DNA of 64,000 nt, taken from NCBI GenBank assembly GCA_016840085.1, contig JAEOTA010000012.1:1-64000 (forward strand), given 5' to 3'. The notes beneath the pieces were generated by a model. It saw only the letters and a list, made by a program, of their open reading frames with translations. It made no database searches and had not been told where the DNA came from. The number at the start of each line of letters is the position of its first letter. Position 1 is the stretch's first letter. The translations under genes and the position numbers were made by a program. This DNA comes from Promethearchaeota archaeon (GTDB lineage: Archaea > Asgardarchaeota > Lokiarchaeia > Sigyniarchaeales > SOKP01). Of this stretch, positions 43,613 through 62,697 are shown piece after piece.

Positions 43613-44080
43613 ATGGTTGAAGAACAAGAAAGAGTCTATTTTCAGGATCAATGGCCTGAAATAGCAACTCAATGTTGGGGTTGTGGAAGAAATAATGAAC
43701 ATGGCTTACAAATCAAGAGTTAATGGGATGGAGATGAAGCAGTTTGTGAGTGGAAAGCAAAAGAATATCATATGGTATTCCCTGGTACTGTAAGTGGAGG
43801 GATTATCGCTTCAATTGTAGAGTGTCATTGTGGTAATACTGCTATTGCTCACTTATATAAAAAAGAGGGGAGAGAACTTGGCGAGGTTCCTTACCCTGGC
43901 ATTGTTAGTGGTACATTAACAGTAAAATATTTGATGCCGATACCTATAAGAAGGCCAATCACATTGCGTGCTAAAGTTGAGGATGCTACCGATAAAAAAA
44001 TTACTGTTTCCTGTTCTGTTTATTCAAGAAATAAATTATGTGCAAAAGGAGAATTAATTGCCATAAAAGTTGGTCGTTAA
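43613..44080 (+). pseudogene. PaaI-family hot-dog thioesterase with an internal TAA at codon 37 (43721-43723)
   Basis: MVEEQERVYFQDQWPEIATQCWGCGRNNEHGLQIKS*WDGDEAVCEWKAKEYHMVFPGTVSGGIIASIVECH... in one frame; TAA lies where Tyr is expected. Confidence 0.8.
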
Positions 44081-44304
44081 ATTAATAATATTTCTTTTTT
44101 TTCATCAGAATTTTAAAATAATTAAGGGATAAGACGAAAGCTAAAATAATTTTATTGGAACTCAAAGGAATTTGGGAAAACTAATAAAAGAAATTGGTTT
44201 TAGAAAAAACCTAAATTTTTAAGACTAGATTAAATTTTCAATCATATTATATGAAAAAAGTCGAAATATGATAAGTTTTTAAAAAAAGAGAGGACAAGAT
44301 TAAA

Positions 44305-45336
44305 ATGCGCGCAGTTATAGTTGAAAAATTTGGCAATATAACTATTAAAGATATCCCTAAACCTTCCCCTGGACATGAAGAAGCCTTAGTTAAAATCTCT
44401 AGCGCAGGTGTTTGCCATTCGGATCTACATCTCGCTTATGGGGATTGGCCCGTAGCAACACCGCCATTCCCTCTGGGGCATGAAGGTATAGGAATAGTTG
44501 AGGAATTAGGTGCTGGTGCTGAGGCTTTTGTGCAGAAGGGCGATAGAGTTATATTGGGTCTGGGTGGAACAGCAGGAGGATATTGGTGTGGAGCTTGTGA
44601 ATATTGCCTTGCTGGAAAACCTATGTTGTGTTTACAGCGTAAGAATCTTATTGGAATATATAGTGAATATGTTTCAATTTGGGCAAAAGCTTTAGTAAAA
44701 TTACCTGATGAAATAAGTGATAGAGAAGTTCCATTAGCATGTGCCGGTTTAACAGCATATAGCGCTATCAAAAAACTTGCTAAGTTTGGAATACCAGCAG
44801 GCAAATTAATTGCTATTATTGGTGCTGCGGGGGGGCTTGGACACTATGCAGTACAGATTGCTAAAGCATTCGGATATAAGGTCATCGGAGTGGATATAGG
44901 CCCTGAAAAATTGGAATTTGTTAAAAAACTGGGAGCAGATCATGCCGTAGAGGTTAGTGAAGCAATGAAGTTCGTTAAGAAGAAGCTTGGCGGTGTATAC
45001 GCAAGCATAGTATTTTCATCAAAAATAGCAGGTTTTGAGCTTGGTTTAAAATTGCTTAAGGCAGGGGGTGTACTTATTGCTGTGGGATTACCTGCCTTTA
45101 AGGAAGGATCGATATCAATAAATCCATTTGAGTTTATATTAAAGGGTTTACATATAGTGGGATCGTTAGTGGGTACTGTAGAAGAAATGAGAGAATTAGT
45201 CCAATTAGCAGCAGAAGGTAAAGTTAAAACTCATATAGGTAGAGTTGCGAATCTTTCAGAATTGAATCAAGTATTTGAGGAATTAGAGCAAGGAAAAATC
45301 GTAGGAAGGGCAATTATTGATAATATCATGGAGTAA
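44305..45336 (+). CDS. Zinc-dependent alcohol dehydrogenase
   Basis: GVCHSDLH, GHEG, CGACEYC, GAAGGLG. Confidence 0.93.
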   Translation: MRAVIVEKFGNITIKDIPKPSPGHEEALVKISSAGVCHSDLHLAYGDWPVATPPFPLGHEGIGIVEELGAGAEAFVQKGDRVILGLGGTAGGYWCGACEYCLAGKPMLCLQRKNLIGIYSEYVSIWAKALVKLPDEISDREVPLACAGLTAYSAIKKLAKFGIPAGKLIAIIGAAGGLGHYAVQIAKAFGYKVIGVDIGPEKLEFVKKLGADHAVEVSEAMKFVKKKLGGVYASIVFSSKIAGFELGLKLLKAGGVLIAVGLPAFKEGSISINPFEFILKGLHIVGSLVGTVEEMRELVQLAAEGKVKTHIGRVANLSELNQVFEELEQGKIVGRAIIDNIME

Positions 45337-45643
45337 TAGAACTTGGTTAATATGGTTTAAGCAGATTTCTATTGCCTAAACTCAATAATTTCAATTTTTT
45401 ATTACTCATCTGATTTTGTAAACATTATTTTCTTATTGGTGCTTGAAAGAATTCATTTTCTTCTAGTTCAACCTCAAGATGAAAGAAAATCCGTATATTC
45501 TGAAAATCCGAGGGATAAATCTACGTAAAAAAATAAATAAAAAAAGTAAATTCTTCTTGGGAATCAGCTCACTCTAAAACAATTTATCGGTAAACTAAAC
45601 CAAAAAAAAAAATATAGAATTAGTTTTAAAAAGACGTATGATT

Positions 45644-45871
45644 TTACAGTGCCTTTAAGGCTTTATCAAGTTCTTCAAGTTGCTCCTTTGAAAATTGTCC
45701 AGGAGCCATCTGTTCAGAATATTCTTGAATCTGGCGTAAACTAAAACCCATAGCCATTTGGGCTTGAGGACTTTCAACGAGCTGTTTTAGGTTTTCTCTA
45801 ATGAACTTTCCAGAAACCTCATCTTCTAAAAGATCACCAAGAGTCATGTCAACATTATACTTATCTGGCAT
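45644..45871 (-). CDS. Small helical hypothetical protein
   Basis: 75 aa, GGAG upstream; TLGDLLED...MGFSLRQI...LEELDKALK. Confidence 0.7.
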   Translation of the reverse strand: MPDKYNVDMTLGDLLEDEVSGKFIRENLKQLVESPQAQMAMGFSLRQIQEYSEQMAPGQFSKEQLEELDKALKAL

Positions 45872-46100
45872 TTTCTATAAACTCCTTCTTATTTACTAAT
45901 ATTAAAGTTTTACTTTAATAGTTGTATTTAATTCGTTAATTGATATAAATTTATTTTAAAGATAGTCTTTAACAAAACTGTGATTTCTCTCTTTTTACAT
46001 TTAAATGCCTTTTAAAAATAAAACTTTATAATCAGAATTTTAAAAAAAATTTAGGATAAACTGAGATCTAAAAAAAATTAATCCCATGTAGCTTTTTTAC

Positions 46101-47396
46101 TTAATCCCATTTTGGTCCACCTGATTTTTCAACTGTGTTGTCATCATCTTCCGAGTGGATTCTCTTTAAGTCAATGTCTTGATATCCTGGGAGAACATTA
46201 AGCATCCGTCTCATAGCAAATTTAATATCTTTAGATGATGCGATGAAACGCCCTACAATTAAAATGTCTGCTCCTTGATTCAAGGCATATGCAGCAGAAC
46301 TTGGCTCAATACCTCCAGCGACAGCGACTAATACTCTATCTCGCCCTGAAGCCTTCTTTTGACTTGCATATAATTCTTTAATTTTCGGTACTAGTGTCCA
46401 TCTCTGCTTTTGCTGAGCGTCAGGGGATAATTTTCCTTCTGTTGACTGTTCAACATCTATAGCTCTATGAATTATAACGACATCCGGAGTTTGCTTTAGC
46501 GAACCCAGCTTCTCTATAGGATTTTGAACTTCCATTGTATCCACGAATGCGTGAATTCCAAGTCGTTGTGCTTCTAAGATAAACTTATCAAGTGAAGCAG
46601 TAGCAGCTAATCCACTTGCTACGACAGCGTCAGCAGTTGCATCAAAGGCAAAATCAACTTCTAATTTTCCTACATCCAATGTCTTTAAATCAGCAACTAT
46701 AAATTTGTCTTTGGCAACATCCCGAATTTGTTTAATCGATTCTACACCATATTTCTTAAGAAAAGGTGTTCCAACTTCAAGTATGATACGATCACTCTTT
46801 GGTAATTCCTTAACAACTTTAATTTGCTTTTCCAAGGCAGGATGATCTAATGCTACTTGTATATATGGTGGACGCCAGAGTCTAGGTACTCGAATCCCCG
46901 CAACTGGGTGTTTTGCGCGGTCTTTATCATAAAATATCTTTTCAATTGGAGGATAATTTTTAAGAGCTCTCTGAATTGCTAACTTTGTAGCACCGTAATT
47001 ATATTGATAGATTTTTCGGTAATCTGTAGCTTCAGGATGTATAAACACACTCACGATTATTACCCAATCATCCAATTTATTCATAGGGATTAAACCTTCT
47101 TCTACGGCATCAGCAATACCTTTTGCTACTGCTGCTTGAGCAGGACCAAATATTTTGTTAGCATCTTCCATATCTGACACAGTGACCTTAGGAACGATCA
47201 AAGAGACTGGTTTGGATAAGAGATTAGGACGTATAGCTCCGAGCAATCCACCGTGACCTTTTGAAGGAGTACTTAACGCATTTGCGAAAGAAATTCCGAC
47301 AGGCCCATCTTTTGAACCAACTATTAAATCTACATGAGCTAGATTGGGAGCTTCTCCGATCAGTGCTTCTCCGATAAAATATTCATTTTTAGCCAT
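46101..47396 (-). CDS. fae-hps: Bifunctional formaldehyde-activating enzyme / 3-hexulose-6-phosphate synthase
   Basis: Fae motifs IGEALIG, AHVDL, FGPAQAAVA, VFIHP, NYGATK; Hps motifs QVALD, EVGTP, ADLKTLDVG, HRAID, VAGG, IVGR. Confidence 0.92.
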   Translation of the reverse strand: MAKNEYFIGEALIGEAPNLAHVDLIVGSKDGPVGISFANALSTPSKGHGGLLGAIRPNLLSKPVSLIVPKVTVSDMEDANKIFGPAQAAVAKGIADAVEEGLIPMNKLDDWVIIVSVFIHPEATDYRKIYQYNYGATKLAIQRALKNYPPIEKIFYDKDRAKHPVAGIRVPRLWRPPYIQVALDHPALEKQIKVVKELPKSDRIILEVGTPFLKKYGVESIKQIRDVAKDKFIVADLKTLDVGKLEVDFAFDATADAVVASGLAATASLDKFILEAQRLGIHAFVDTMEVQNPIEKLGSLKQTPDVVIIHRAIDVEQSTEGKLSPDAQQKQRWTLVPKIKELYASQKKASGRDRVLVAVAGGIEPSSAAYALNQGADILIVGRFIASSKDIKFAMRRMLNVLPGYQDIDLKRIHSEDDDNTVEKSGGPKWD

Positions 47397-47642
47397 ATGA
47401 TTTTCCTTTTTTAATTATAAAATATTTCTTTTTATTAATTTTGGAGAGTTTATTTATTTATAATAATGTATTTTTGAGATAACACTACAATTATCTAGAG
47501 TTAATCTTCTATTAATAAAATTATTGATTGAATTATCCCTTAAATAATAAAAAAGATTTAAAGAAAATTGTGGTAAAAATACCGAAATTCTTTCATTTCA
47601 GAAATTTCATTTTCAATTTTGTTAATTTGAGATATAGACATG

Positions 47643-48770
47643 CTATCTCTTTATCTCCATGATTAAATCGTGTATACGATTAAGTCCTGATGTAAGGTAA
47701 TCTGGGGGTAATCCAAAACTGATCCGAAAAAATTTATCCATACCGAAATGATCCCCGGGTACAATAAAAACGCTTTTTTCCTTACGTAATCGCTCTGCAA
47801 ATTCAGTGGAGTTGATGTCTAAATGATATCGAACAAAAGCAATTGCGGCTGCTTGTGGAGGCACAACACTAAATGTATTTTCATGGTCATCCATCCATTG
47901 TTTTAAGATAGGATATCCTTTACGAATGTAATTACGAGTGCGTTGTATAATACGTGGTCGCACTTTAGGAGAGAGTGCGATTGCAGCAAGTTTGTTTGAT
48001 AACATCGTAGCACTAATGGTAGTATATTCATGCCGTGCCCAAATTTGATCTATAGTATCAACAGGAGCAATTACCCATCCAATACGTAGTCCTGGTAATC
48101 CATACGCTTTACTCATGCTACCAACTGCTACAAGTCTGTCATATCGTCCAAAAAAAGAGGGGGTTTGTTTATCCGTTAAACGTTCAGCGCCGCAGTAGAC
48201 TTCATCAGTTAAAATCCATGCCCTAGCTTGTTCTGCTATATCTATGATTGCTTTCATTTCATTCTCGGTAAGGATGTAACCAGTGGGATTATTAGGATTA
48301 CAAACAGCTATTAATTTGGTATTTCTGGTTACAATTTCGTTTAACTCATCTAGATCAGGTTTCCAACCATTTTCCTCTCGCAGATGGAATGTTTTTAATT
48401 TGAAATCAAAATTCTTAGCAATACCCCAAATTTGCATGTAATTAGGTAGCATAATAACGATTTCATCGCCGGTATTAAGTAGTGTGTGAATAGTGTTATA
48501 ATTAGCTTCAATTGCCCCTGTTGTAACTAAAATATTATTTATGGTAGCACCATCATACAACGCAGCAATATTTTCTCTTAATTCAGGGATACCATTAACA
48601 TATGGGTAGTTAAGATCGGTAGCAAGCAACTGGTCGATATTATTAGGATTATCTGATAATAGGTCGCTGAGCAAAATTGGATGAACACCACTTTCGGATA
48701 GGTTGAATTCAACTTCTTGCTCATACTTGGACATCCAACGTTCCATAAGAAAGGATTGAAATTGTGGCAT
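47643..48770 (-). CDS. Class I/II PLP-dependent aminotransferase
   Basis: CNPNNPTG, DEVY, SMSKAYGLPGLRIGW. Confidence 0.92.
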   Translation of the reverse strand: MPQFQSFLMERWMSKYEQEVEFNLSESGVHPILLSDLLSDNPNNIDQLLATDLNYPYVNGIPELRENIAALYDGATINNILVTTGAIEANYNTIHTLLNTGDEIVIMLPNYMQIWGIAKNFDFKLKTFHLREENGWKPDLDELNEIVTRNTKLIAVCNPNNPTGYILTENEMKAIIDIAEQARAWILTDEVYCGAERLTDKQTPSFFGRYDRLVAVGSMSKAYGLPGLRIGWVIAPVDTIDQIWARHEYTTISATMLSNKLAAIALSPKVRPRIIQRTRNYIRKGYPILKQWMDDHENTFSVVPPQAAAIAFVRYHLDINSTEFAERLRKEKSVFIVPGDHFGMDKFFRISFGLPPDYLTSGLNRIHDLIMEIKR

Positions 48771-48971
48771 TTTATTATCTTTTTTGTTTTGAAATATTAT
48801 AGAGAAATTATGAAATATATAATAAAAGGATCATGCATAGTAGCTTCTCAAAATATCGAATTTCTTTCTAAGGTTTAATAAAGCAGTTTTTTATTAAAAT
48901 TCAAAAATTATAAATAACCAAATTGACATTTATATCAAAGAATAAAAATTAATAGAAAGGGTGAAAATTAA

Positions 48972-49271
48972 ATCACATACACAATAGCAGAAGGTAAATT
49001 CCCTAAAAAACCTGGATATGGTAAAGTAGTAATAGCGTGCAGAAAAGATTTTAGAAATTTTAAAAAAGATAACGGAAATAGAATTGCTCAGTTTATAGAT
49101 GAAAGAATCACACGATTTGCTCAGATGGGTTTGGATCTTAAAGTAATTAATAACCAGAAAGATAATTTAGAAGGTATTAGGAAACTTTTTAGGGAAGGAA
49201 AAGAGGATACAGCATTTTCGTTGTTTTTTAGGACATTTCCAACGTGTTTACCTTATAGAACAAGGCTTTAA
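48972..49271 (+). CDS. Hypothetical 99-aa protein with a probable ATC start (not in ORF track)
   Basis: 100 open codons in AT-rich DNA (ITYTIAEGKFPKKPGYGKVVIACRKDF...); GGTGA 7 nt before ATC; in-frame TAA directly upstream. Confidence 0.55.
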   Translation: MTYTIAEGKFPKKPGYGKVVIACRKDFRNFKKDNGNRIAQFIDERITRFAQMGLDLKVINNQKDNLEGIRKLFREGKEDTAFSLFFRTFPTCLPYRTRL

Positions 49272-49283
49272 TATATAAAAAAT

Positions 49284-49616
49284 CTAAATAACTTCAATTG
49301 AATCGATATTCCAGAGATATTTTTTCAGATCAATTTTAAATTCACCTGAAAACTCAATTCCTTCTAATTCTAACAGTTTTTTTTGATACTGTTTATCCTC
49401 AATTGACGACATAGATAATTTACCATTTGAACTTATGACACGGTGCCATGGCAAATGATATTTCTTACTTGAAGAATGAAGAACCCAAGAAACTTGTCTT
49501 GCGGCTTTAGGATTTCCTGCTATTTTAGCAATAAATCCATAAGTGAGAACTTTACCCTCCGGAATGTTTTTAATTATATTTATAATTCTTTGTGTAAAAT
49601 CACTAGGAATTGACAC
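49284..49616 (-). CDS. Alkyltransferase-like (ATL/YbaZ) protein, MGMT family
   Basis: IPEGKVLTYG, AARQV, and PWHRV (Trp in place of the catalytic Cys). Confidence 0.88.
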   Translation of the reverse strand: MSIPSDFTQRIINIIKNIPEGKVLTYGFIAKIAGNPKAARQVSWVLHSSSKKYHLPWHRVISSNGKLSMSSIEDKQYQKKLLELEGIEFSGEFKIDLKKYLWNIDSIEVI

Positions 49617-49629
49617 TCACCATTTTGAA

Positions 49630-50985
49630 TTATTGCTTATATCTTTCAGTAGATTTTTTTTCAATTTTTTTTGCTGAAGTATATAGTTTTTCTAATTTTT
49701 CTTTCTTTAATTCTTTTGTTTCGAAAATTATATGATTACAATCGTATTTAGCAAAGTTCTTTTCAAATATATTTATTTCAAAATATTCTTTCTCATCCCA
49801 CAAACGAGATCCGGGATAAGGAGTTGCTACAAAGTAATTTATTTCATCTCCCTCATCTAAAGGTAAAGAGTCTATATATTCATTTGTCTGGTAAAAACTG
49901 TTTTTTGTTTCGCCAGGAAGTCCTAATACGAAATATGCTTGAATTGCAATATCGTATTTTTTTAAATTTATAATTCCTTTCTTTACTTGTTCTGGATCTT
50001 GATATTTAAAATTTTTTTTGAGAACTGTTTTATTAGCAGATTCAATCCCAGTTGCAATTAATTGACATCCTGCCTCTTTTAACAAGCGAGCGTCTTCAGA
50101 GTTTATAGTATCTATCCGGAGTTCACAACCCCAAGGTATAGTAATTTCATATTCGACAAACATCTCACAAAAATTTCTAAAAAATTTTCTATTTATGTTG
50201 ATGTTATCATAAAAATTGATATAATTATAAGTTTGTAATGAAAGAATGTCATTTATTTCTGCATATATAGATTCAATGCTTCTAATTCTTGTTTTTTTAA
50301 ATAAATTTTGCCTTGAGCAGAAAGAGCATTCATTGGGGCAACCTCTGTTTACAATGACACTCGCAACAGTATAAAAGTAATTCTCTTGCGATAATTTATA
50401 ACGAGCAGGTAAAGGTAATAATTCTAAGTTTATAGGTTCTTCAGGGAATCCTGTAAATATAATTTTCCCTTTCGAATTTGTATAAGAAATCCCTTTAATT
50501 AAATTAATTTTTTCTTCAAACGTCTCTAACCTTTTTTTTTTAGTAATGTGTTGTTGTAGAATTTTGATGAGACTTAATAAAGAATACTCTGATTCGCCAA
50601 CACAAATAAAATCGATTAATCTTTCTGCTTTTGAGTCATTATTTAAAATTTCTCTATACAAGAAAGATACGTGGGGTCCTCCCATAATTACGTAATTATT
50701 TTGCTTTTGAGATTTTATGATTCTGGCAACATCAAGCGCCATATGAAAAGTATTTGTAAGAGATGTAATCCCAAAAATATTATAACCAGTTATTTTTTGT
50801 CTTATCAGATTTTCAAATTCAGATTTGTTTAAATCTTTAAATTGTTCAAGATCCAAAATATCAACTGGAGTGTTACTTAAATCTAATATCGCTGATAAAT
50901 ATAATAATCCTAAGTTAGGCTCTCTAAAAAAATCAGTTTGGACTTCTGTAGGTTTAGAAGTTTTAGGATTGATTAGTAGAATCAT
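49630..50985 (-). CDS. B12-binding radical SAM protein
   Basis: [38 protein letters not shown]. Confidence 0.9.
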
Positions 50986-51787
50986 CTTGAGTGCTTATTT
51001 CATTGTCTTCAGGTAATTGATCAGGAATTTGAAATGCCTTGGTTAAAGCATTAAAAGAGCCGGGTTTACTAAATTTTTCTTCGTATATTACGGGGATTTG
51101 TGATTCCAATGGGGGAGATTTATCATCTTCGTGTATATATAATTCTATTCCTTGGATTTTTCGATTTTTTATAACTAATCGAGTGGAGTAATTATGATCT
51201 TTGAAAAAAGTAAAACCATTGTTTAAACGTCCTAATTTTATAGGATTAATAACGGTTTTTTCTTCTTTAAGGAAAGTTTCTACGACTTCTTCATCAATAT
51301 ATATAGTTCCCCCGATTATTATGAATCGCCTTATTAATTCTTCTGGTTTGGGAAAACTATTTATGTATTCAATTGCCTTATTTGCTTTAGGGCTTACAAT
51401 CGAGACATCTCTTATAAATCTATCTTGAGTAGGTTTAGAAAAATCACTTTTCTCAATAGGTTTGGCGCGACCTGCACCAAGTGGCTTTTCTAAAATTTCT
51501 TGAAATTCTTGATCATCAATAGAATAAATGTTTAATGGATATACTCTATAAAATAATCTTAATTGTTGCCGAAACATTCCAGCCAAAATACCACCATATA
51601 TTTGAACTATGAAAGAGCTGTGCGAACCATTGAAAGTCCAAATTTTCTTTGTATCATGATCTACCAGCAAATATACCCTCTCTTTACTGGTTTCGTTTAA
51701 AATATCACTTACTATACTCCCTTGATGCACTTCTCTTGTTTCCATAAACGGAAATTCTGTGAGTGTTATAACTTCAAATATCTGCAT
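50963..51787 (-). CDS. Asgard gelsolin/cofilin-like domain protein with a C-terminal extension
   Basis: [22 protein letters not shown]...[12 protein letters not shown]...EFQEIL pattern of single-domain gelsolin-fold proteins. Confidence 0.6.
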
Positions 51788-51962
51788 ATATAGTTATCCA
51801 TTAAATTCTTATATAATTTATAAGGTTATTATCTTTAAAATAAATTTCATAATATGCATCAATTTAGAAAATTAATCTAAATCCTAAAATTCCATAAAAT
51901 TTTTATGAAAATAAACATTTATGGAGTTATTCTTGCTTTTTTAAGTTCAAGTATGATATATC

Positions 51963-52364
51963 GTGTCTTCTGAAAAAATAGTATATAAGTTAAACATCAG
52001 TGGTGGTACTGAAGGACCTGGAAAAGGATTATCCAAGCTTATTGAAATTGATGAAAAAAAATTTCGATTTGAAGGGATGAAAATTGGTGATGTTATTAAA
52101 GGTGGGCTTGTAGGATTTCCTAATTATGAATTCGTAATTACCGGGGGGAGTGACTCATCAGGATTCCCCATGAGGAAGGATGTACATGGCCCTGTTAAAA
52201 AGAAAATTCTTGTTTCTAAAAGAAGTATTGGATTTAAACCTCGAAGAAACGGAGAAAAAAAGAGAAGAACCGTGAGAGGTAATGAAGTAACAAGTGATAT
52301 GACATTAATTAACCTAAAAGTTACAAAATATGGAGAAGCCGAACTTTTTAAAAAAGAAAAATAA
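51963..52364 (+). CDS. rps6e: 30S ribosomal protein S6e
   Basis: ITGGSDSSGFPMRKDV, GEKKRRTVRGN. Confidence 0.95.
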   Translation: MSSEKIVYKLNISGGTEGPGKGLSKLIEIDEKKFRFEGMKIGDVIKGGLVGFPNYEFVITGGSDSSGFPMRKDVHGPVKKKILVSKRSIGFKPRRNGEKKRRTVRGNEVTSDMTLINLKVTKYGEAELFKKEK

Positions 52365-52390
52365 TAATGAAATATTTTCGATGATGCATC

Positions 52391-52573
52391 ATGGTCAAAG
52401 TTAAAAAATGTAGCTTTTGTGGGTACGACATTCCTATAGGTCGAGGGGTAATGTTTATCCAAAAGAACGGTGTAATATATAATTTTTGTACTAACAAATG
52501 TAGAAAAGCATTGTTGGTTTATAAAAAAAAAGCAAGAAAAACTAGATGGACCGCTTATTACGGGAAAGAATGA
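52391..52573 (+). CDS. rpl24e: 50S ribosomal protein L24e
   Basis: CSFCGYDIPIGRGVMF...FCTNKC...RWT. Confidence 0.95.
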   Translation: MVKVKKCSFCGYDIPIGRGVMFIQKNGVIYNFCTNKCRKALLVYKKKARKTRWTAYYGKE

Positions 52574-52598
52574 TTTTTACTTACTCTTTCTAATATTC

Positions 52599-52605
52599 AA
52601 AAAAA
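52599..52605 (-). terminator. U7 tract after the distal copy of the rpoN 3' end
   Basis: A7 on the + strand, 7 nt beyond the TAA at 52613-52615. Confidence 0.4.
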
Positions 52606-52612
52606 GGTTTAA

Positions 52613-52654
52613 TTATTGTAATCGAGGAAATTTAAGTAGTTCATCGATCAGGTC
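52613..52654 (-). repeat. Second, synonymously recoded copy of the last 14 codons of rpoN (DLIDELLKFPRLQ*)
   Basis: Compared with 52736-52777: 8 nucleotide differences in 42 nt, none changing an amino acid. Confidence 0.92.
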
Positions 52655-52785
52655 AAGTTGATCTATATAAATATAGTACTCAAATTCCTTTAGATTAAAA
52701 TAAAACGAATCAGAATCATATTTATTTAATCTAGATTACTGTAATCTAGGAAATTTGAGTAGCTCATCTATTAAATCTACATGAC
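52652..52785 (-). repeat. Long imperfect inverted repeat: the proximal rpoN 3' end (52785-52742) pairs with an antisense arm (52697-52652)
   Basis: Helices GUCA/UGAC, GAUUUA/UAGAUC, AUAGAUG/UAUUUAU, UACUCAAAUUUC/GGAAUUUGAGUA and UAGAUUA/UAAUCUA on the mRNA strand. Confidence 0.8.
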
Positions 52786-52967
52786 TTACACTTATAAGGC
52801 GAAAATGCCTACTAATTTACGATCATGCGTTTACAACAAAAGCGTTCAATACCAAGCTCCTTAAACGCTTTTTCTGAGCTCTCTCCTTTTTCTAAATACT
52901 CTAAATACGGTTCATATACATGGGCTATTAATTTACCACAGGAGAAGCATCTCACAGGTATGATTAT
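52736..52967 (-). CDS. rpoN: DNA-directed RNA polymerase subunit N (Rpo10), interrupted by a 31-nt insert; probable ATA start; not in ORF track
   Basis: (M)IIPVRCFSCGKLIAHVYEPYLEYLEKGESSEKAFKELGIERFCCKRMIV [31 nt] SHVDLIDELLKFPRLQ*; 66 aa once the insert is removed; GAGGAG upstream. Confidence 0.93.
52786..52816 (-). other. 31-nt intervening sequence in rpoN (candidate BHB-type mRNA intron or bypass element)
   Basis: AUUAGUAGGCAUUUUCGCCUUAUAAGUGUAA; carries in-frame UAG UAG, shifts the frame, contains a hairpin, and GUAA is repeated at both junctions. Confidence 0.75.
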
Positions 52968-53098
52968 CGTTAATCTCCTCTATCTATATCAAATTTTCTT
53001 CTCATTTAATAAAATAGATGATCCCTTCTAAAAAAAATTTTTGATTTTTATTTACATCCAATTTTAAAAGGACAAAATACACTCAACATTTAGAACTT

Positions 53099-53938
53099 TT
53101 AAATTTCAACTAAACTACTATTTAAATAAGTCGGAATTATGGTTATTAGATTATTTCTCAAATATATTACTTTTAATGATGTTAAATTTTTAATTGATGC
53201 AGGAAGTGTTTTAAGCTTATTTTTCTCTAAAAATAAGATCTCAAGATTAGATAAATTTCCAATTGCGTCTGTTAGCTCTTGCAAGTGATTATCGTCTAAA
53301 TATAATTTTTTTAAAGAAGTTAGATTTGCTATTAATTTAGGAATATGCCTCAATCTATTGTGATCAAGACTAAGAGATTCAAGATCTTTTAATCCAAAAA
53401 TTGGTTCTGGAATAGAACTAAGACCACAACTATCCAAATTGATATGTTTTACTGAACAAATTTTCCCAGAATCAACGTAATCCCAAAACTGGTCAAGACC
53501 GATAACTCCATGAATAAAGTCCTCGTCATTAGTATTCTTAAGACGTACTAAGTGTAATTTTACACCCGGTTTATGAGCTCGAATCTTATCCCGTAAATCT
53601 TTAAGATAAAACTTTCTCTCTCTTACAAATCTTTTGTCCCATAACCCTTTCTCATGCTCCCATTTTGAAGCGTCAATTATTTTGGTCGTTAAATCATCAG
53701 GGAGAACAGATCCAGTTAAAAGAATAAAATAACCAAGAACAAGGTAAGTCTTCCTTCTTGAAGATCGTCTTTCAACTATTTTCATGATTTTATCGAAACT
53801 ATCTTCAAAAATATCCCTAGTTAATACTCTATCATCATTATGATAGTCTTTTAGATTTATCCCACATGCTTTTATGAAAAAAGATGCAAGGTCGGATTCT
53901 TCGTCTCCTTCCATAATTTCAGCTGTTAATTTTGCCAT
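53099..53938 (-). CDS. Leucine-rich repeat protein
   Basis: About five 23-aa repeats LxxLxLxxNxLxxIPxxIxxL at the C-terminus. Confidence 0.9.
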   Translation of the reverse strand: MAKLTAEIMEGDEESDLASFFIKACGINLKDYHNDDRVLTRDIFEDSFDKIMKIVERRSSRRKTYLVLGYFILLTGSVLPDDLTTKIIDASKWEHEKGLWDKRFVRERKFYLKDLRDKIRAHKPGVKLHLVRLKNTNDEDFIHGVIGLDQFWDYVDSGKICSVKHINLDSCGLSSIPEPIFGLKDLESLSLDHNRLRHIPKLIANLTSLKKLYLDDNHLQELTDAIGNLSNLEILFLEKNKLKTLPASIKNLTSLKVIYLRNNLITIIPTYLNSSLVEI

Positions 53939-54010
53939 AAAAACAACTATAAAATTTTCCTCATTATCAAAATAAAAAAATAAATATTTAAATAGTACAC
54001 ATATTATATT

Positions 54011-54367
54011 TCATTTCCCTAAAAAGTGACTTGTATAAAAGAGCTTAGCTTCATCAAATGTCATACCATCAAACAGATCACTCATTATTTCATCAATTTT
54101 GTTATAAATTTTATAAGTATTTATAGTACTCTCTGAATAACCAAGGTCTCGTAATAAATCTTCAGCAGTATCGCTCTCGATTATTAATCTTTTTGCTCTT
54201 GGTTTATCAAATAACTCAAGTTTTTCAACTCTAATTCCACGCATATTTTTCTCAACAAATCTTTCAACATTCCATTGGTCTACATCTAACTGATCAGCAA
54301 GTTGAATCGTTGTAATAAATCCTTTACTGATATAGGACGAAATTAATGATTTTAGATTTTTGAAAGC
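54011..54367 (-). pseudogene. 5'-truncated HTH-containing gene fragment
   Basis: The frame stays open 41 codons upstream of the listed ATG and includes TTIQLADQLDVDQWNVERFV, but has no canonical start before the in-frame TGA at 54370-54368. Confidence 0.5.
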
Positions 54368-54581
54368 TCATGCACAGTTAGAAGAGACCTATTTTCATAT
54401 TACTGAAACTTACACTTTAGATGATTTTTTACCATTAGCAAAAGCCAAATGTAATAATTGTGGTTATTTTATTATTCAATTGGACAGTTATAATTATTAT
54501 TTAGATAAAGGCGAGTGTCCTAAGTGTTTTTCCAATACCTATTTCAAAATAAATGATGGAAAAAAGGAGATGGTGAACTAA
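54360..54581 (+). CDS. Zinc-finger ORF, probably a 5'-truncated fragment
   Basis: CNNCG...CPKC; no SD or promoter space; abuts the divergent fragment. Confidence 0.5.
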   Translation: MKAHAQLEETYFHITETYTLDDFLPLAKAKCNNCGYFIIQLDSYNYYLDKGECPKCFSNTYFKINDGKKEMVN

Positions 54582-54761
54582 ATGGGATATGAGGGGAGAT
54601 GAAATAATTCTGAAAGAGTTTGCTGTTCAGCCGATTCAATTGAAGCCGTACTTAGCTGTATCTTATCCATGACCACAGGAAAAGGAAAGGTCTTTATCTA
54701 CGAATTTGGCAAGGATGGGAAAATATCGAAATTGCGTAAAATAATCACCATTACAGATTAA
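54582..54761 (+). pseudogene. Probable decayed small ORF (broken frames)
   Basis: GGTGA + ATG GGA TAT GAG GGG AGA TGA; removing one G gives MGYEGDEIILKEFAVQP...; a second short frame MTTGKGKVFIYEFGKDG... follows. Confidence 0.35.
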
Positions 54762-54779
54762 AATAATGAGGGAAAAATA

Positions 54780-54944
54780 ATGAATAGTAATGATATGGAA
54801 TGGTTGAATAGTTTTAGGAAAGAAATATATGTTGAATTCGATCAATGTGGGAATGATCGTCAAAAATTAGAAAAGGTTGCGTCAACGTTAGATGTTATTG
54901 ATCACATAATCAATCATTTTAAGGCAAAATATAATTTAAAATAA
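54780..54944 (+). CDS. Small 54-aa hypothetical protein
   Basis: MNSNDMEWLNSFRKEIYVEFDQCGNDRQKLEKVASTLDVIDHIINHFKAKYNLK; GAGG upstream. Confidence 0.5.
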   Translation: MNSNDMEWLNSFRKEIYVEFDQCGNDRQKLEKVASTLDVIDHIINHFKAKYNLK

Positions 54945-55134
54945 AGTTTATTCTTTAAATTCTAATCAAATCATTAATATAATATTACCTTCTAATTTTT
55001 TTTTCTTTATTTTTGTTTCTTCTTCCGATTAGTATTGATTGGGTTTAATTCTTATTTAGTTATAAGTACCATCTAGCGAGGATTGAACGAAAATTAAAAA
55101 ATCTCACACCCATTTTCATTTATTACTTTTTTTT

Positions 55135-56580
55135 CTAGGTAATCATGTTTTTGTATTTTTCAAGGTCTATATTATATAAAAAAGGTTTAAGATGGTTGTC
55201 CATTAAAACTCTCCGAATAGGTTCAAGTTCAGGATTATTAACAACGTTTTTTAATTCATTCGGGTCATTTTTTAGGTCAAATAGTTCGACAGGTTTTTGA
55301 GTATCACTTTTAACTGTTAATTTATAACGTTCATTTCGAACCATCGAATATCCATATACTTCGCTAAAAATAACTTCCTTAATCTTTTGAGCATTAGGAT
55401 CATTAGGACCATTTTTAATTGTTGGTAAATTTGAAATTCCATTATTTTTCGTTAAAGGTTTTGCATCAGCAATCTCAATCAATGATGCGGCTATATCAAG
55501 ATGATCTGTTAATCCTTGGCATTCCCAACCTTTAATACCTCCAGGAGGTCTAATTATTAAGGGAATTCGTAAAGCTCCTTCATAAAACACTATTTTATGA
55601 CTCATCATATGGTCTCCAAGCATTTCACCATGATCAGAATTATAAATTATCCACGTATTATGTGATAAACCTTTTTCTTCGACAGCTTTGAGAATTTTTC
55701 CTATATATTCGTCGATAAGGCTAATTTTCCCATAATAATAAGTTCGTAAGAGTTGACATTGTTCTTGTCTCATATCATGCAATCCACTCCAAGCTAATAC
55801 CATTTTTACGTAAGAGGGTAGAGGTTTCTGAGGCCATTTAAATATTCCTAATGGCATTTCCTCCGATTTATACATATCTCTATATTTTTGGGGTGAATCG
55901 AATGGATCGTGAGGACCTGGAAAAAGTATTTGAAGGTAAAAGGGCTTTTTTTTAGTATAATTACTTATCCATTCTACTGCGGTACGACCTGTATAACTAT
56001 CTAGATGATCTTCATCAGGAAGTGGGCATGGTGCTAATTCCCAATGTTTACCAGTTCCTCTCGCCCATCCTTTCCAATAATCTACCATATATCTTCTATG
56101 AATTCTTAACAATCCTTTTTTTTCAAGATAATCTGTATATGGTGAATTATGTCTAATTGTCGCAAGAGGTCCAGTAAGTTCATGGATACCTAAAAAACCC
56201 CAATTCTTTAAATCATCCTTTCTTTCATTCGTATGATTCCAATCCTTTCCTTTCGCACCATGAACATAAAGATGGGTTTTACCAATTACGGCAGTATGAT
56301 ATCCTGCATCCCGAATATTACGAACATGACTTCGGCTTAAAGGAGAAGCTTCATTGTTGTTTGTCCAAATACCATGTTCACAGACATATTGACCCATCAT
56401 CATCGAAGCTCTTGCTGGCATACAAAGTGGTGAGTTTGTACAACAATTAGTAAAGTTAACACCTTCAGAAGCTAATTTATCTAAATTAGGAGTAATTACA
56501 GATGGATGCCCAACACATCCAAGTGTGTCACCGCGGTGTTGGTCTGAAAAAATATATATTATATTTGGTTTTTCTGCCAT
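55135..56580 (-). CDS. Sulfatase (formylglycine-dependent)
   Basis: PNIIYIFSDQHR, CMPAR (CxPxR), GKTH, PHDP, SDHGEMLGDH. Confidence 0.93.
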   Translation of the reverse strand: MAEKPNIIYIFSDQHRGDTLGCVGHPSVITPNLDKLASEGVNFTNCCTNSPLCMPARASMMMGQYVCEHGIWTNNNEASPLSRSHVRNIRDAGYHTAVIGKTHLYVHGAKGKDWNHTNERKDDLKNWGFLGIHELTGPLATIRHNSPYTDYLEKKGLLRIHRRYMVDYWKGWARGTGKHWELAPCPLPDEDHLDSYTGRTAVEWISNYTKKKPFYLQILFPGPHDPFDSPQKYRDMYKSEEMPLGIFKWPQKPLPSYVKMVLAWSGLHDMRQEQCQLLRTYYYGKISLIDEYIGKILKAVEEKGLSHNTWIIYNSDHGEMLGDHMMSHKIVFYEGALRIPLIIRPPGGIKGWECQGLTDHLDIAASLIEIADAKPLTKNNGISNLPTIKNGPNDPNAQKIKEVIFSEVYGYSMVRNERYKLTVKSDTQKPVELFDLKNDPNELKNVVNNPELEPIRRVLMDNHLKPFLYNIDLEKYKNMIT

Positions 56581-56767
56581 ATATTAAAACTCTGTATAAA
56601 TTACTTTATAATGATTATAATTAATCTATTTAAATATTTAAATCCAAGAAAAGAAATTATGTAAATGAAAAATTTTATTTTAAACCTAAAATTATCTATT
56701 GTATCATATATCGATGATTTATGAAAATATATATTAGAATTAATATATTTGAAGGAGATGATTTAAA

Positions 56768-57136
56768 ATTTCATATATTAAAATTCAGATTCCTGATAAA
56801 TTGAAAAATCAAATAAAGAATGCTCTAAACACCATAGCAGAGACCAGAGATTCTAAGATTAGAAAAGGAATGAATGAAGTGACAAAATCCATTGAACGAG
56901 TCCAAGCAAAATTTGTTGTGATGGCAGAAGATGTCAGTCCTCCAGAGATTCTCTTCCATATTCCCCTCTTATGTGAGGAAAAGGGGATTCCATACGGTTA
57001 TGTCTCAGGCAAAAAGGAATTAGGAAATTCTGTAAGAATAAACGTTTCTTCTAGTGCTATCGCAATTGAACACGTAGGAACAGGGAATGAAGGAGTCTTA
57101 GATGATGTAATTAAAAAGTTAAAAGAAATAAAATAA
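56768..57136 (+). CDS. rpl7ae: 50S ribosomal protein L7Ae; probable ATT start 11 codons upstream of the listed TTG
   Basis: KGMNEVTKSIER, AEDVSPPEI, LCEEKGIPY; upstream in-frame SYIKIQIPDKL matches the L7Ae N-terminus (SYVKFEVP type). Confidence 0.92.
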   Translation: MSYIKIQIPDKLKNQIKNALNTIAETRDSKIRKGMNEVTKSIERVQAKFVVMAEDVSPPEILFHIPLLCEEKGIPYGYVSGKKELGNSVRINVSSSAIAIEHVGTGNEGVLDDVIKKLKEIK

Positions 57137-57150
57137 TGTGGTGAAGTTAT

Positions 57151-57396
57151 GTGGTTAAACTTGATAAGTCTAAAGGAGTTGTTGTTCAAGATAAATCCAT
57201 TCCTGCCCAAGTAATACAAATTATTGGCCGAACTGGTCTCACAGGTGAAATTACACAAATAAAAGTTCGAATTTTAGAAGGACCAGATAAGAATCGAATC
57301 TTGACAAGGAATGTAAAAGGTCCTATTAGAATAAATGATATTGTAATTTTGAGGGAAGTTGAAAGAGAAGCTCGAAAGATTCGAGGGCGTCGATGA
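57151..57396 (+). CDS. rps28e: 30S ribosomal protein S28e
   Basis: [33 protein letters not shown]. Confidence 0.95.
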
Positions 57397-57646
57397 AATT
57401 AAAGGGATTGACGATTTTATAGACGTTACTAATGTTATTTCTTATTTTATATTGAATTAATTAACAATTCCTTATTTTCTGACTAATTTTTCTAATATTT
57501 TTTTAAATATTTTTTTTTCTCAAATTTCAAAAGGTGTGAAAACATTTAAATAGTATGTTTTTCATATAATGTTTAGAGTTCATAAAGTTTGAAATTTAGA
57601 AAAGATTGGTGAAAAAAAAATTTTCTCAAAAAATCAAACAACTGTC

Positions 57647-59377
57647 TTGGAAGAAAGAGAAGAATTCATCATAATTGATAAGATAACTCGTAAAGAGCAC
57701 CGTCATCTTAGAAAATTATTAATTTTTATTATAATACTTATAATTTCTCTAACTTGTTTACAATTTAATAAAGCTCAAAGTTATAATAATTATGAAAGAG
57801 TTCAATTTAAATCCGCTGGAGCTACTCTCTATGCTAATTTATATTATCCATCGAAAACTTTAACATTTCAAGAAAAACACCCATTAATTATTTATTGTCA
57901 TGGAATTGGGAGCAAAAGGGACTTTGATCTTAGAATTCCATTAGAATTTTTAAAAAGGGGTTTTTATGTAGCGGCACTTGATTATCAAGGTCATGGTGAA
58001 AGTGGAGGAAATATTAATAATATTGACCCTATTACAGGTATTCCCGCTTTAGCTCAAGATTGTTCAAAATTATTAGATAAACTAGAGACAATGCCCTTTT
58101 ATTCAGAAATAGAAAAAAACCAAATTGGTTTAATTGGACATTCGCTAGGTGGAATGGTTGTCCTTATGAATCAAGCTTTAGATTCCCGTTTTAAAGTTTC
58201 AATAGGATTAGCTCCTTTAGTAAAGTTTGAACCACCTAGATTTGGATTTGTCTATAATAAAAATTTCTTGAATTATATTCCTGCTAATTTGTTAAATGGA
58301 GAAAACACTCATAATTTACTAATAATTCATCATGAAAATGATGAGATCTTAGATTTTACTGAAAATGCCCTAAAAGCCCAAGAATTAACAAATTGTACTC
58401 TAATTCCAATTAAAGGATTTTTGATTGGTGGAGCACACCAATTATATTCTGATAAAGTGCTTGTAAAATCAATTAATTGGTTTGAACAACATTTTTTTAA
58501 CTCCGAAATTTTAAACGGTCGAATATACATTACATTCTACTGGAATTATTTTTTAATTATATTTAATATTGCTTTTTTGCTTATAACCGTTATATGTCTT
58601 ACGTCTGTATCAAGCAGTATTTTTTTTAAAAAAGAACGTGAATTTGAAGAGTCAGAATTTAGCGATTATCGTATAGAAACAACCCGTTTTGATAAAAAGA
58701 GACAAATCTTTAAAGTATCTCTCTCTATCGGTGCATTTCTTCTTAATTGGGTAATATTTGAAAGAATTTTTGGATTGGTTGGGATTATTTTTGCTTCATT
58801 AAATATGATTTTTATTTATACACTTATTAAACTAATATTATATATTAAAAAACATAAGTCTATAAGGATAAAACATAGTTTAATCAAAATTGTAAAATCA
58901 CAGCTAAAACTAAAATATATAATCTTTATTTGTATAAGTTCCGCATATTTCATAGCTATTTACATGATCTTTTCATTCTATTATCCATTTGGTTTTATTT
59001 GGCCTTCTAATTTCGTTGTTCATTTTGCTTTAGGATACTTAATTTTCCCGGTATTTTTATCAATAGAAATTTTCTTTAGAAAAATCTTATATCCACAATT
59101 AAATTTCTTAAAATCGAAGGGCTCAAAAACAAAAGTAATCATAACCACAATGGTTTTAGTTCTAATAAGCTTAATGTTTTTAACTAAACGGTTGTCATAT
59201 TTTCCTTCCTTATTATTCACATATCTGATATTTGCAATGGTAATAATTCAAAACGAAAAATTATTTGAAAATATGAAAAATTTTTATCCTGTTGTAATAA
59301 TCTCATTTAGTATCGTTCAAATCTTCTTTGCGGCAGTGATTTCCAATGCAATTGGCATTAGTTTAAGCCTAAACTAA
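57647..59377 (+). CDS. Alpha/beta hydrolase with a C-terminal multi-TM domain
   Basis: HGIG, DYQGHGES, GHSLGG nucleophile elbow; many TM helices downstream. Confidence 0.85.
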   Translation: MEEREEFIIIDKITRKEHRHLRKLLIFIIILIISLTCLQFNKAQSYNNYERVQFKSAGATLYANLYYPSKTLTFQEKHPLIIYCHGIGSKRDFDLRIPLEFLKRGFYVAALDYQGHGESGGNINNIDPITGIPALAQDCSKLLDKLETMPFYSEIEKNQIGLIGHSLGGMVVLMNQALDSRFKVSIGLAPLVKFEPPRFGFVYNKNFLNYIPANLLNGENTHNLLIIHHENDEILDFTENALKAQELTNCTLIPIKGFLIGGAHQLYSDKVLVKSINWFEQHFFNSEILNGRIYITFYWNYFLIIFNIAFLLITVICLTSVSSSIFFKKEREFEESEFSDYRIETTRFDKKRQIFKVSLSIGAFLLNWVIFERIFGLVGIIFASLNMIFIYTLIKLILYIKKHKSIRIKHSLIKIVKSQLKLKYIIFICISSAYFIAIYMIFSFYYPFGFIWPSNFVVHFALGYLIFPVFLSIEIFFRKILYPQLNFLKSKGSKTKVIITTMVLVLISLMFLTKRLSYFPSLLFTYLIFAMVIIQNEKLFENMKNFYPVVIISFSIVQIFFAAVISNAIGISLSLN

Positions 59378-59447
59378 TATTTTAGTTTTAAAATAAATTT
59401 AACTTTAAAAATCTTTCATGATCATGAAATCTGTGACAATTAAAAGA

Positions 59448-60041
59448 TTATTTTTTCTTTTCTAATAATTTACTTAATTCTGCTATTAACCAGCAAAGCT
59501 CATCATATGTAGAAGAGGATTTATAAATTTCTTGAGTTTTTTTCTTAATCTCGTTTTCTGAAACTTTTTTTTTTCCTTTTAAAAAATTTAATTGTAATTT
59601 TGCTAGCTTTCGGCATAAATCTTCATAAGTGTTTTTTTGTTGAGCTAAATTATGAACTGTTATAGTTATTTCAGCTTCAAAATCAGGATCTATTCCAGCA
59701 TCGATAAGTTCCATTGTATCTTCAATATCTATTTCTAATTCGGGTCTCTTATCAATAGAAGCATTTGGTGTTAAACCTTTCTTCAATATATCCATAATTG
59801 CTAAGAATGAGCCATATTCTTGACTCTGATCCATAATCTGAATTTCAACATTTTTTTCTCGCTCATTCTTTAACTTTTCTGCCCTTTTTACACTTAAATC
59901 TTTCTTTTTTTTAGAAGCTTTTACACCAAACCATAAATAGAGATTTCTGAAATCATCAATTAAATACACTTTATTTTCGTTGAAATCAATTTTAGAAACT
60001 TTTCTTAAAGCTCCGTTTTCAGTTACATTAAAAAAAAGCAT
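59448..60041 (-). CDS. Gelsolin-domain protein with a helical C-terminal domain
   Basis: KVYLIDDFRNLYLWFGVKAS...AEKL...IMDQSQEYGSF is a gelsolin repeat; C-terminal repeat TYEDLCRKLA / TYDELCWLIA. Confidence 0.8.
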   Translation of the reverse strand: MLFFNVTENGALRKVSKIDFNENKVYLIDDFRNLYLWFGVKASKKKKDLSVKRAEKLKNEREKNVEIQIMDQSQEYGSFLAIMDILKKGLTPNASIDKRPELEIDIEDTMELIDAGIDPDFEAEITITVHNLAQQKNTYEDLCRKLAKLQLNFLKGKKKVSENEIKKKTQEIYKSSSTYDELCWLIAELSKLLEKKK

Positions 60042-60186
60042 AATTTTTCTTTATTTAATCCTTAATCCAATATAGTAAAACTAAGTAAATTAATATTTTA
60101 AATTTTAACTAAAACCTAAATTTGAATTATTGTGATATTATTTTAGCATAATAAAAAGAAATCTAAATTAGTTAAGGAGTTATCTA

Positions 60187-60396
60187 TTAAATATCCTCCT
60201 CAAAATACCCTAATAACTTCAAATTTTCATATTCGTTATGTAAAAAATCTCTAACAGCATTTCTTATCGCTTCAGATCTACTTGGAACAAGATGCATTTT
60301 TATTAATTTTTGAATATTTTTGTCATAGATTTCTGGGATATTAATGGTAATATTGACCATCTTGTTTATTTTTTTTTTTTGTTTATTCTCTGCCAT
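60187..60396 (-). CDS. Ribbon-helix-helix (CopG-like) protein
   Basis: NITINIP...IQKLI...SRSEAIRNAVRDFL. Confidence 0.85.
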   Translation of the reverse strand: MAENKQKKKINKMVNITINIPEIYDKNIQKLIKMHLVPSRSEAIRNAVRDFLHNEYENLKLLGYFEEDI

Positions 60397-60679
60397 TTAG
60401 CTAGCTCCAAGTGATTTGATTTTTTGTTATTTTATATTTGGAGACAGAAAAGTGAAATATTATCGCAGATATATTCTTTTCCCTTAATCTATTCACTCTT
60501 TTCTAACATTAAATTATAAGAATCTTGAGTATTAATAATTAACTATTAATGGAAATAATTTTGATTGTTTAATTATTTAGATGAACATTTTGCATGAGTA
60601 ATTAATAGGGTGATTGAAAATATTTTATTACACTCATAGAAATTCGTTTAGATTGATAGACTCTTTAGAGTTAGAACAA

Positions 60680-61354
60680 CTATAATCTATCTTCTGAACT
60701 CACATACCTACCACGAGACTCAATAACATCAATATTTTTAATAATCTCATTACATTCATTTGGATTATACTGTTGATACTCTGAGCTATATCCTTCGAGG
60801 AAAGCTTTAAAACAAATCTCATAATCGCTACCGTGGGAAGAAATTAAAACTCTTTTCAAGAGATGCAGATCAACACTTTTGTCTTCAATCATATCAGAAT
60901 ACTCATGCAACCCAAAATCTATTAAAAAAATATCTTCATTATTAGTAATTATAATATTACTTGTAGTTATATCACCATGAACATGTCCATTTTTATGTAA
61001 TAGAGCAATTATATGTCCTATTTTTTTAAAATAGTGTCTTTTTTTAAAATCATCCAATCTAGTTAAAATATCTTTTAATTTGTTACCTTGAATATATTTC
61101 ATAACAATTGTGGAATTATTTGGGTCAATTTCAAATACTTGTGGGACGTTTATTCCGTAATTTTTAACTTTTATTAACGCTCGAGCTTCATTTAAAGTTC
61201 TTGTAGTTCTAATTATCTTATCAAGTTCTTCAATCCGATATTTTTTAGGGATTCTATATTTAAAAATCACTTCTTTATCAAACCAATACCCATAATAAAG
61301 ATTTGCCTCAGCACCTTTTCTTACGATTTTTTCCCTAATCACATCAGAACTCAA
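60680..61354 (-). CDS. bud32: KEOPS kinase Bud32
   Basis: KGAEA, KYRIPKKYR, HGDITTSN, LIDFGL, RGRY. Confidence 0.95.
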   Translation of the reverse strand: MSSDVIREKIVRKGAEANLYYGYWFDKEVIFKYRIPKKYRIEELDKIIRTTRTLNEARALIKVKNYGINVPQVFEIDPNNSTIVMKYIQGNKLKDILTRLDDFKKRHYFKKIGHIIALLHKNGHVHGDITTSNIIITNNEDIFLIDFGLHEYSDMIEDKSVDLHLLKRVLISSHGSDYEICFKAFLEGYSSEYQQYNPNECNEIIKNIDVIESRGRYVSSEDRL

Positions 61355-61360
61355 ATTAAT

Positions 61361-62365: not shown

Positions 62366-62481
62366 TTATTTTGCCATAAAATTCTTTTATTGACTTAATA
62401 TCTTTTAATAAGAAAAAATTATGTAGAGAAAGAATAGTAGTAGCTATCGAATTTGCCTTTCTTTATCGAATAAGATTTTTT

Positions 62482-62697
62482 TTAGGTTTCCCTTGATTTT
62501 GTGCGCTTTCGAGGGGCCCTTCTAGCTGTTTTTCCTTTTGCAGCTCCTTTTCGTTTAAACACTGTATAGCCACATTTTCCACAACTCCACCGATCATAAT
62601 GATTTGCAAGGAAAAAACTCGGCCCACACTTAGGACAAGATCGATGAGTCCTTATTAATTTATCTCCTTCCAATTTATAATAATCTGATGCTCCCAT
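62482..62697 (-). CDS. rps27ae: 30S ribosomal protein S27ae
   Basis: CPKCGPSFFLANHYDRWSCGKCGYT. Confidence 0.95.
   Translation of the reverse strand: MGASDYYKLEGDKLIRTHRSCPKCGPSFFLANHYDRWSCGKCGYTVFKRKGAAKGKTARRAPRKRTKSRET

Follow-up and report, generated by a model that had tools for sequence, protein, structure and literature searches.

An orphaned 3' end downstream of rpoN in a Lokiarchaeia archaeon suggests gene-end replacement linked to a LAGLIDADG homing endonuclease

Why should rpoN, a gene present in a single copy in its genome, carry its 3' end twice? In the window (the whole 64,000-nucleotide stretch of a Promethearchaeota archaeon that was analyzed), two 42-nt copies of the rpoN end lie 123 nt apart on the minus strand and differ at 8 nucleotides while encoding an identical 13 residues and stop codon. 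A direct check of the sequence bore out these figures, which come from a preliminary description of the locus, as well as its statement that a U7 tract (T7 in the DNA) follows the distal copy only; the proximal copy is followed by just a T4-A-T4 run (52705-52697). Eight random substitutions were all silent in none of 200,000 trials, and in 11 of 200,000 when a transition bias was included. The rpoN gene itself starts with ATA at 52967, breaks off after codon 49 and resumes 31 nt further on. The longest run identical between the two copies is 9 nt, internal to the repeat, and the homology of the distal copy reaches 2 nt beyond the 42 nt, to 52656. Rfam gave zero matches within positions 44000-64000 of the window, and a scan for sigma-70 promoters and hairpin terminators, with models ill-suited to archaea, gave nothing above chance.

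Table 1. Features of the rpoN locus in the window, and further duplicated gene ends in the same genome
Feature	Coordinates	Strand	Basis
Shine-Dalgarno-like purine run of rpoN	52975..52980	-	Sequence; also in alleles of the genus with a non-ATG start
rpoN (Rpo10, PF01194) exon 1, ATA as initiator	52817..52967	-	PF01194 match, model positions 1-49
Predicted 31-nt bulge-helix-bulge-type intron, apparently part of the incoming block	52786..52816	-	Helices and bulges in 19 alleles; compensatory changes
Putative incoming foreign rpoN 3' end, probable working exon 2, containing the proximal copy (52777-52736)	52736..52785	-	8/42 differences from sister G076; codon choices common to other intron alleles
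81-nt spacer without nuclease gene	52655..52735	-	Unconserved; 13 to about 1,560 nt in relatives
Third rpoN tail copy, inverted and decayed, back to back with the distal copy	52657..52704	+	p=0.003 against shuffles; fold z=-5.1; best match to the L070 and L063 tails
Probable orphaned native rpoN 3' end (distal copy)	52613..52654	-	Matches the single G076 tail at 40/42 nt; downstream flank 95%
T7 tract, native terminator-like run	52599..52605	-	Common to the intron-less sister
rpl24e, convergent neighbor	52391..52573	+	39 nt to the distal copy, about as in G076
Duplicated 3' ends around ordinary cargo	C19:38551-42227, C78:215232-217047, C4:194587-196839, C40:37555-40250, C6, C46, C66, C73

A duplication of this kind could in principle reflect collapsed strain variants or another assembly artefact, the genome being a metagenome bin with 7.6% contamination. 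This explanation is extremely improbable: one 7.2-kb contig (which may come from the source sample) spans the stretch without a difference, the longest shared run is too short for a mis-join at k=31, and the layout recurs in independent assemblies, namely in 6 other genomes and several metagenome contigs.

Comparison of rpoN from 48 genomes of the genus indicated which of the two copies is native. The gene is uninterrupted and has a single tail in 38 of these genomes, and carries a 30-31-nt insert at the same codon in the other 10. A second tail lies 55 to 1,599 nt downstream in 7 of the 10 intron-bearing genomes and in 0 of the 38 intron-less ones, counts among which kin are not independent; Fisher tests on genome counts take the genomes as independent and so overstate significance. 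The closest host, G076, is the sister of the window genome on the host tree, with 94-95% identity in both flanks and an uninterrupted rpoN. Its single tail differs from the distal copy at 2 sites and from the proximal copy at 8, and runs into the same T tract and rpl24e. The distal copy was also the nearer one to the closest intron-less host in all 7 duplicated genomes (sign test p=0.016); in G016, for example, it differs from that host at 1 site, compared with 12 for the proximal copy. Because the distal copy matches the G076 tail, and is likewise the host-like one in each duplicated genome, we regard it as the native end that was displaced, and the proximal copy as foreign. At the level of sequence comparison, the distal copy is shown to be the host's own former rpoN tail, now orphaned, and it is this copy that is orthologous to the uninterrupted genes, a point that the preliminary description had left to comparison with relatives. 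The proximal copy is probably the translated one, which would place the distal copy in the 3' untranslated region.

The silent differences fit this picture. Working tails of different species in the genus differ by a mean of 7.9 of 42 nt with almost no amino-acid change, so that the 8 differences can be regarded as ordinary divergence of two alleles, each selected in its own lineage. Since they equal the mean distance between working tails, neither deliberate recoding nor ongoing double selection is needed. The suggestion that an element supplied its own recoded 3' end is therefore right in that incoming DNA displaced the native end, and wrong in that this end, as its distance shows, is another species' ordinary allele. 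The suggestion that both copies have been under protein-level selection likewise holds only for the time when the two copies served as working tails in separate lineages, since orphans decay: residues never seen in the 38 working tails occur in 5 of 12 orphan copies, as compared to 0 of 19 proximal copies. Distal copies in relatives thus do accumulate non-synonymous changes, and the view that this copy is kept free of them had to be given up. The orphan in the window has had little time for decay, as only two of its sites differ from the working tail of the sister. In G001 there is no recognizable orphan tail, and the orphan in G030 is a chimera, donor-like on the left and host-like on the right.

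The insert that accompanies the duplications has the form of an archaeal bulge-helix-bulge (BHB) intron. In 19 alleles it shows a 6-bp exon helix, 3-nt bulges and a central helix in which three of four positions pair (17 alleles) or all four do (two alleles), corresponding to the relaxed BHB form. Compensatory changes in the exon helix, central helix and inner stem were as high in none of 500 shuffles. Predicted cuts after the second bulge base restore the reading frame and yield Ser or Gly at codon 50 in all 19 alleles, these being the two codon-50 residues of intron-less alleles in the genus. EndA, in the region C79:3909-4157, and RtcB are both present in the window genome. We infer that 52816-52786 is an archaeal BHB intron in the relaxed form, and predict that it is spliced. 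A different intron of 29 nt occupies the same rpoN site in L065, L066 and L084, with the same outer helix and bulge positions and an adjoining nuclease gene.

The 10 intron-bearing genomes are scattered over a host tree built from the neighboring rps6e and rpl24e genes; 10 changes are needed, and a single clade was rejected (p-AU 2e-45). Over the 42 nt around the intron, intron alleles differ from each other at 3.7 sites and intron-less alleles at 8.7, a sharing not seen in the remainder of exon 1. Since the splice helix imposes part of this sharing, it counts for less as evidence of transfer. Between the window genome and G024 there is no difference over exon positions 61-147 and the intron, even though their neighboring genes are only about 86% alike, which points to recent transfer. 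The proximal copy has codon choices common to other intron alleles. In G025 and G072 the intron is present, the tail becomes host-like after a few codons, and there is no duplicate. As judged from these alignments and this tree, the intron and the proximal tail are shown to be a foreign block that has reached many hosts of the genus unrelated to each other. Taken alone, the duplicated tail is no more than a passive scar, which dates and orients the intron transfer.

One might instead propose that the duplication arose locally and in tandem in this lineage, or that an ancestor had both intron and duplication and these were lost many times, with both copies selected. Indeed, G024, an outgroup to the window genome and G076, is similarly laid out, and one loss in G076 is formally possible. 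However, the proximal copy resembles the tails of distant hosts and not that of the sister; sisters have different silent codons across the junction, so that precise losses of the cDNA type did not occur; and recombination between the two tails would leave the intron in place. Together with the ten scattered states on the tree, these observations make a history of duplication and loss most improbable.

The preliminary description also raised the possibility that 52777-52655 is a second removable segment, giving alternative terminal exons around an 8-nt micro-exon. In line with this, the 123-nt segment is 41 codons long, its spacer part has no in-frame stop (5% of shuffles), and it folds strongly (z=-5.1) into a long hairpin whose base is near the proposed junction. 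However, no BHB motif was found at 54 registers, either before or after removal of the first intron, and the hairpin base has 1x1 mismatches where 3-nt bulges would be expected. Spacer length ranges from 13 to about 1,560 nt among relatives, 5 of the 8 short spacers do not keep the frame, no comparable hairpin exists in relatives, distal copies decay, and both products would be the same protein. The in-frame join of the two copies is real and uninformative, since any cut between homologous points of a duplication stays in frame. No joint skipping exactly the 123 nt turned up in four DNA contig sets, contigs being assemblies that drop rare variants. With the motif missing at every register, and with spacer length, frame and fold unconserved, we consider a second removable segment very unlikely. 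Stop-codon readthrough into the open spacer was rejected as well, the open frame being unconserved.

The strong fold is explained by the inverted and decayed third tail that the spacer holds, which pairs with the proximal copy in the long hairpin and has its start at the valine codon where the distal copy also begins. A search for inverted tail copies in relatives gave none that was significant (G024, p about 0.06), with no clear counterpart in 18 other alleles. The third tail may stem from a rearranged donor, as an older fragment, or may be the product of fold-back at a break; as for rearranged donors, rpoN is inverted relative to rpl24e in G012 (L039) and G072 (L044). In L094, the spacer between the tails consists of a terminator and the 3' part of rpl24e, so that the copied donor piece seems to have ended inside this neighboring gene.

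Longer spacers in relatives carry a gene. In G008, G023, G069, L063 and L064, about 1.5 kb lies between the two tails and includes a single convergent LAGLIDADG gene, which is split in two frames in G023; in G001 the LAGLIDADG gene is broken. Intact rpoN-linked nuclease genes occur at L043:2628-4088 (minus strand) and L036:5440-6906 (plus strand). The rpoN-linked proteins (486-494 aa) contain two LAGLIDADG motifs, both with acidic residues, and match LAGLIDADG_3 (PF14528) only in Pfam; the model fold matches bI3, I-DmoI, I-AniI and I-SceI (best E 6e-5; mean pLDDT 69). By its motifs and predicted fold, the cargo in relatives is a LAGLIDADG homing endonuclease. All 6 of the 6 close homologues looked up adjoin rpoN, as do the six best matches in the family (135 genomes). 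The long spacers are shown, by homology, to hold a two-motif LAGLIDADG gene whose closest homologues are all found beside rpoN. More distant members of this free-standing group are present in 80 of the 135 family genomes, with up to 8 matches per genome and at many loci.

A nuclease gene lies less than 3 kb from rpoN in 5 of 10 intron-bearing genomes, as compared to 1 of 38 intron-less ones. Three loci (G012, G112 and L068) pair the nuclease with an intron-less rpoN, and the intron is therefore not the only possible protection; the rpoN of G012 faces a 907-aa version of the nuclease. In the window genome there is no nuclease gene beside rpoN. In G024, L070 and L091 the nuclease gene is found on the upstream side of rpoN, and a distance of about 100-130 nt separates the tails, similar to that in the window. 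Comparison of the 81-nt spacer with the ends of the long cassettes gave best p-values of 0.011 and 0.02 in 23 tests (dinucleotide shuffles), leaving nothing after multiple testing. A similarity with z of about 3-3.7 under simple shuffles, initially a candidate trace of a larger deleted element, fell to p 0.01-0.04 under dinucleotide shuffles in these 23 tests and was discarded. Reduction of an element to about 120 nt, as first suggested, may have occurred; no significant match links the spacer with the long cassettes.

The preliminary description had further asked whether larger integrase-bearing elements occupy this site in relatives, where we found the LAGLIDADG cassette. The corresponding scenario, in which an att site in rpoN took up such an element, which brought a replacement end and later shrank, has in its favor a general layout that resembles elements restoring their target gene. 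Phage 21 and e14 in the icd gene of E. coli are elements of this kind; a literature search on that precedent gave nothing relevant. On the other hand, there was no match to an integrase or tyrosine recombinase on the rpoN contigs of five genomes, the cassettes measure about 1.5 kb and contain one nuclease gene only, and orphan left ends vary. The left ends of the repeats in the window share no identical core (2 nt), so that neither hallmark of an integrase-type integrative element, the integrase gene and an identical att core at both ends, was found. The integrase scenario is thus largely refuted, and we give it hardly any credence.

We consider it likely that the two copies are the scar of 3'-end replacement by nuclease homing, as described for the WHO elements of yeast. 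According to this model, the nuclease would cut rpoN alleles that lack the intron, at the intron site (codons 47-52) or close to it, and an intron-bearing donor would serve as the repair template for the break, with the left crossover in exon 1. Should the right broken end pair with the orphan fragment of the donor, the whole block would be copied and the recipient's own tail would become the new orphan; should it pair with the donor's working tail, only the intron would be acquired and no duplicate would arise, which is the state of G025 and G072. The intron would split the nuclease target and thereby protect the new allele, and would be removed from the mRNA by EndA and RtcB. A cut at the intron site fits the left ends of the orphan tails, which begin within about 15 nt of it. 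Each round of homing would renew the orphan with the tail working until then, and the orphan would look selected because it is refreshed in this way. At the rpoN of the window, the nuclease gene may have been deleted or may never have been copied; a short spacer with an upstream nuclease is also found in G024, L070 and L091.

The main rival is the same displacement without a nuclease driver. Here, homology-facilitated illegitimate recombination, a mechanism described elsewhere (PMC5361080), would use conserved rpoN sequence as the homology anchor and make an illegitimate join on the other side, leaving the old tail behind, with nuclease genes as one kind of passenger. The window genome itself provides support for this, since about eight further genes have a second copy of their 3' end located 0.6-3.4 kb downstream, with ordinary cargo in between in which no nuclease motif was seen, and tail displacement therefore does not need a linked nuclease. 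One of these duplicated ends, at C19:38551-42227, has 7 differences and no amino-acid change in the last 14 codons. The short rpoN spacers also differ from each other, and the spacer of L094 is made of donor sequence. However, every long rpoN spacer holds the same nuclease subfamily, which is confined to rpoN; the orphan left ends cluster near the intron site; and all 7 duplications go with the intron. Moreover, illegitimate recombination is orders of magnitude rarer than homologous recombination (PMC5361080), yet the block entered about 10 lineages. We therefore regard a nuclease-free origin as rather unlikely.

Two more distant LAGLIDADG family members are encoded elsewhere in the window genome, each with a displaced gene end. 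The one at C19 (L097:2286-5310) serves as an internal control for the homing model. There, a zinc dehydrogenase gene ends in a foreign working tail, beyond which come an intact LAGLIDADG gene (471 aa) in convergent orientation and then the native tail, now orphaned; identity to the working tail of G076 is 90% for the orphan tail and 77% for the tail in use. No intron was seen near the tail of this gene. At C37 (L098:1706-6906), a 446-aa gene is separated from an orphaned copy of its own 5' end by a LAGLIDADG gene (374 aa) together with one for a radical SAM protein, an arrangement that is a 5'-end version of the tail-displacement layout.

For the homing model, the closest known system is yeast WHO at FBA1, in which the nuclease cuts the sensitive allele, the donor 3' end replaces that of the recipient, and the old end becomes a new fragment that is used as a recombination site (Coughlan et al. 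2020, PMC7282813). Similarly, the working rpoN gene appears to be a chimera of a host 5' part and a foreign 3' end, and the downstream fragment matches the host's own former end in 7/7 genomes. As to the position of the nuclease, a LAGLIDADG gene lies between the new end and the fragment in the five loci with long spacers, is missing from the window, and lies upstream of rpoN in G024, L070 and L091. The rpoN system differs in residing on an archaeal chromosome, in a nuclease gene that is convergent with or upstream of its target, and in a replaced end of only about 17 codons that carries a micro-intron of the protein-spliced BHB type; cleavage by the rpoN nuclease is predicted. No intein or zinc-finger domain was detected in it, so that by analogy it would work like WHO and is not a member of the WHO family proper (HO/VDE relatives), which has such fused domains.

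Free-standing LAGLIDADG genes with duplicated C-termini are also known from fungal mitochondria, at Allomyces atp6, Ophiostoma rps3 and Phlebia atp6/cox2 (PMC4019555) and at Endoconidiophora cob/atp6 (PMC6279837). There, too, the gene lies between its target and a duplicate of the target's C-terminal part, but in organelle genomes and with no BHB intron in the replaced end. [quoted passage not shown] The phage introns are self-splicing group I introns without a duplicated gene end, whereas the rpoN introns are BHB introns of 29-31 nt. The cbf5 pre-mRNA of Crenarchaeota contains a BHB intron of 16-44 nt whose splicing has been shown (PMC2738675); like that of rpoN it is a short intron in a protein gene, with a relaxed BHB motif and too little room to encode a nuclease, but no linked nuclease or displaced tail was reported for cbf5, and rpoN splicing is a prediction. 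Finally, orphan 3' ends at rhs and T6SS loci arise by homology-facilitated illegitimate recombination (PMC5361080). These share with rpoN the C-terminal displacement that leaves the previous end downstream, but need no nuclease and are selected for toxin diversity, whereas the Rpo10 protein is unchanged.

We lean, with some reserve, towards a broader interpretation, in which the free-standing LAGLIDADG nuclease and the 31-nt tRNA-type mRNA intron form a two-part gene drive at an essential gene in Lokiarchaeia: the nuclease would cut intron-less rpoN, the intron would be the mark of immunity, and the orphan tail a self-renewing landing site. If true, this would provide a concrete route for the movement of protein-spliced introns among the protein genes of those prokaryotes that are most closely related to eukaryotes. 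In a 2026 preprint on the tRNA introns of Asgard archaea, no general route of arrival emerged (10.64898/2026.10.13.758758), and the origin of the cbf5 intron was called unclear (PMC2738675). The rpoN locus combines a nuclease and its predicted target of about 20 bp with matched alleles, presumably sensitive or resistant, and with a dated scar, which makes nuclease-driven intron spread testable in vitro. WHO-type end replacement would also be extended to archaea; the literature searched held no paper on an archaeal case, and nothing relevant on Asgard mRNA introns or rpoN-linked nucleases.

The other end of the window gene may have its own history. Within 52932-55120, rpoN has 12-13 differences in its first 33 nt from each of G076 and G024 and there matches L063, L092 and L094, and about 2.1 kb upstream of the gene (an LRR gene at 53099-53938 and small ORFs) is missing from G076 except for an LRR remnant. 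This suggests a separate 5'-end replacement, and a search upstream for an orphan 5' head of rpoN found none. The rpoN starts in the genus fall into two groups, one mostly with ATG and without a Shine-Dalgarno run, the other with ATA, ATT, ATC, GTC, GTT or TTC behind a GGAGG-type run; the start in the window (52965-52980 region) is ATA.
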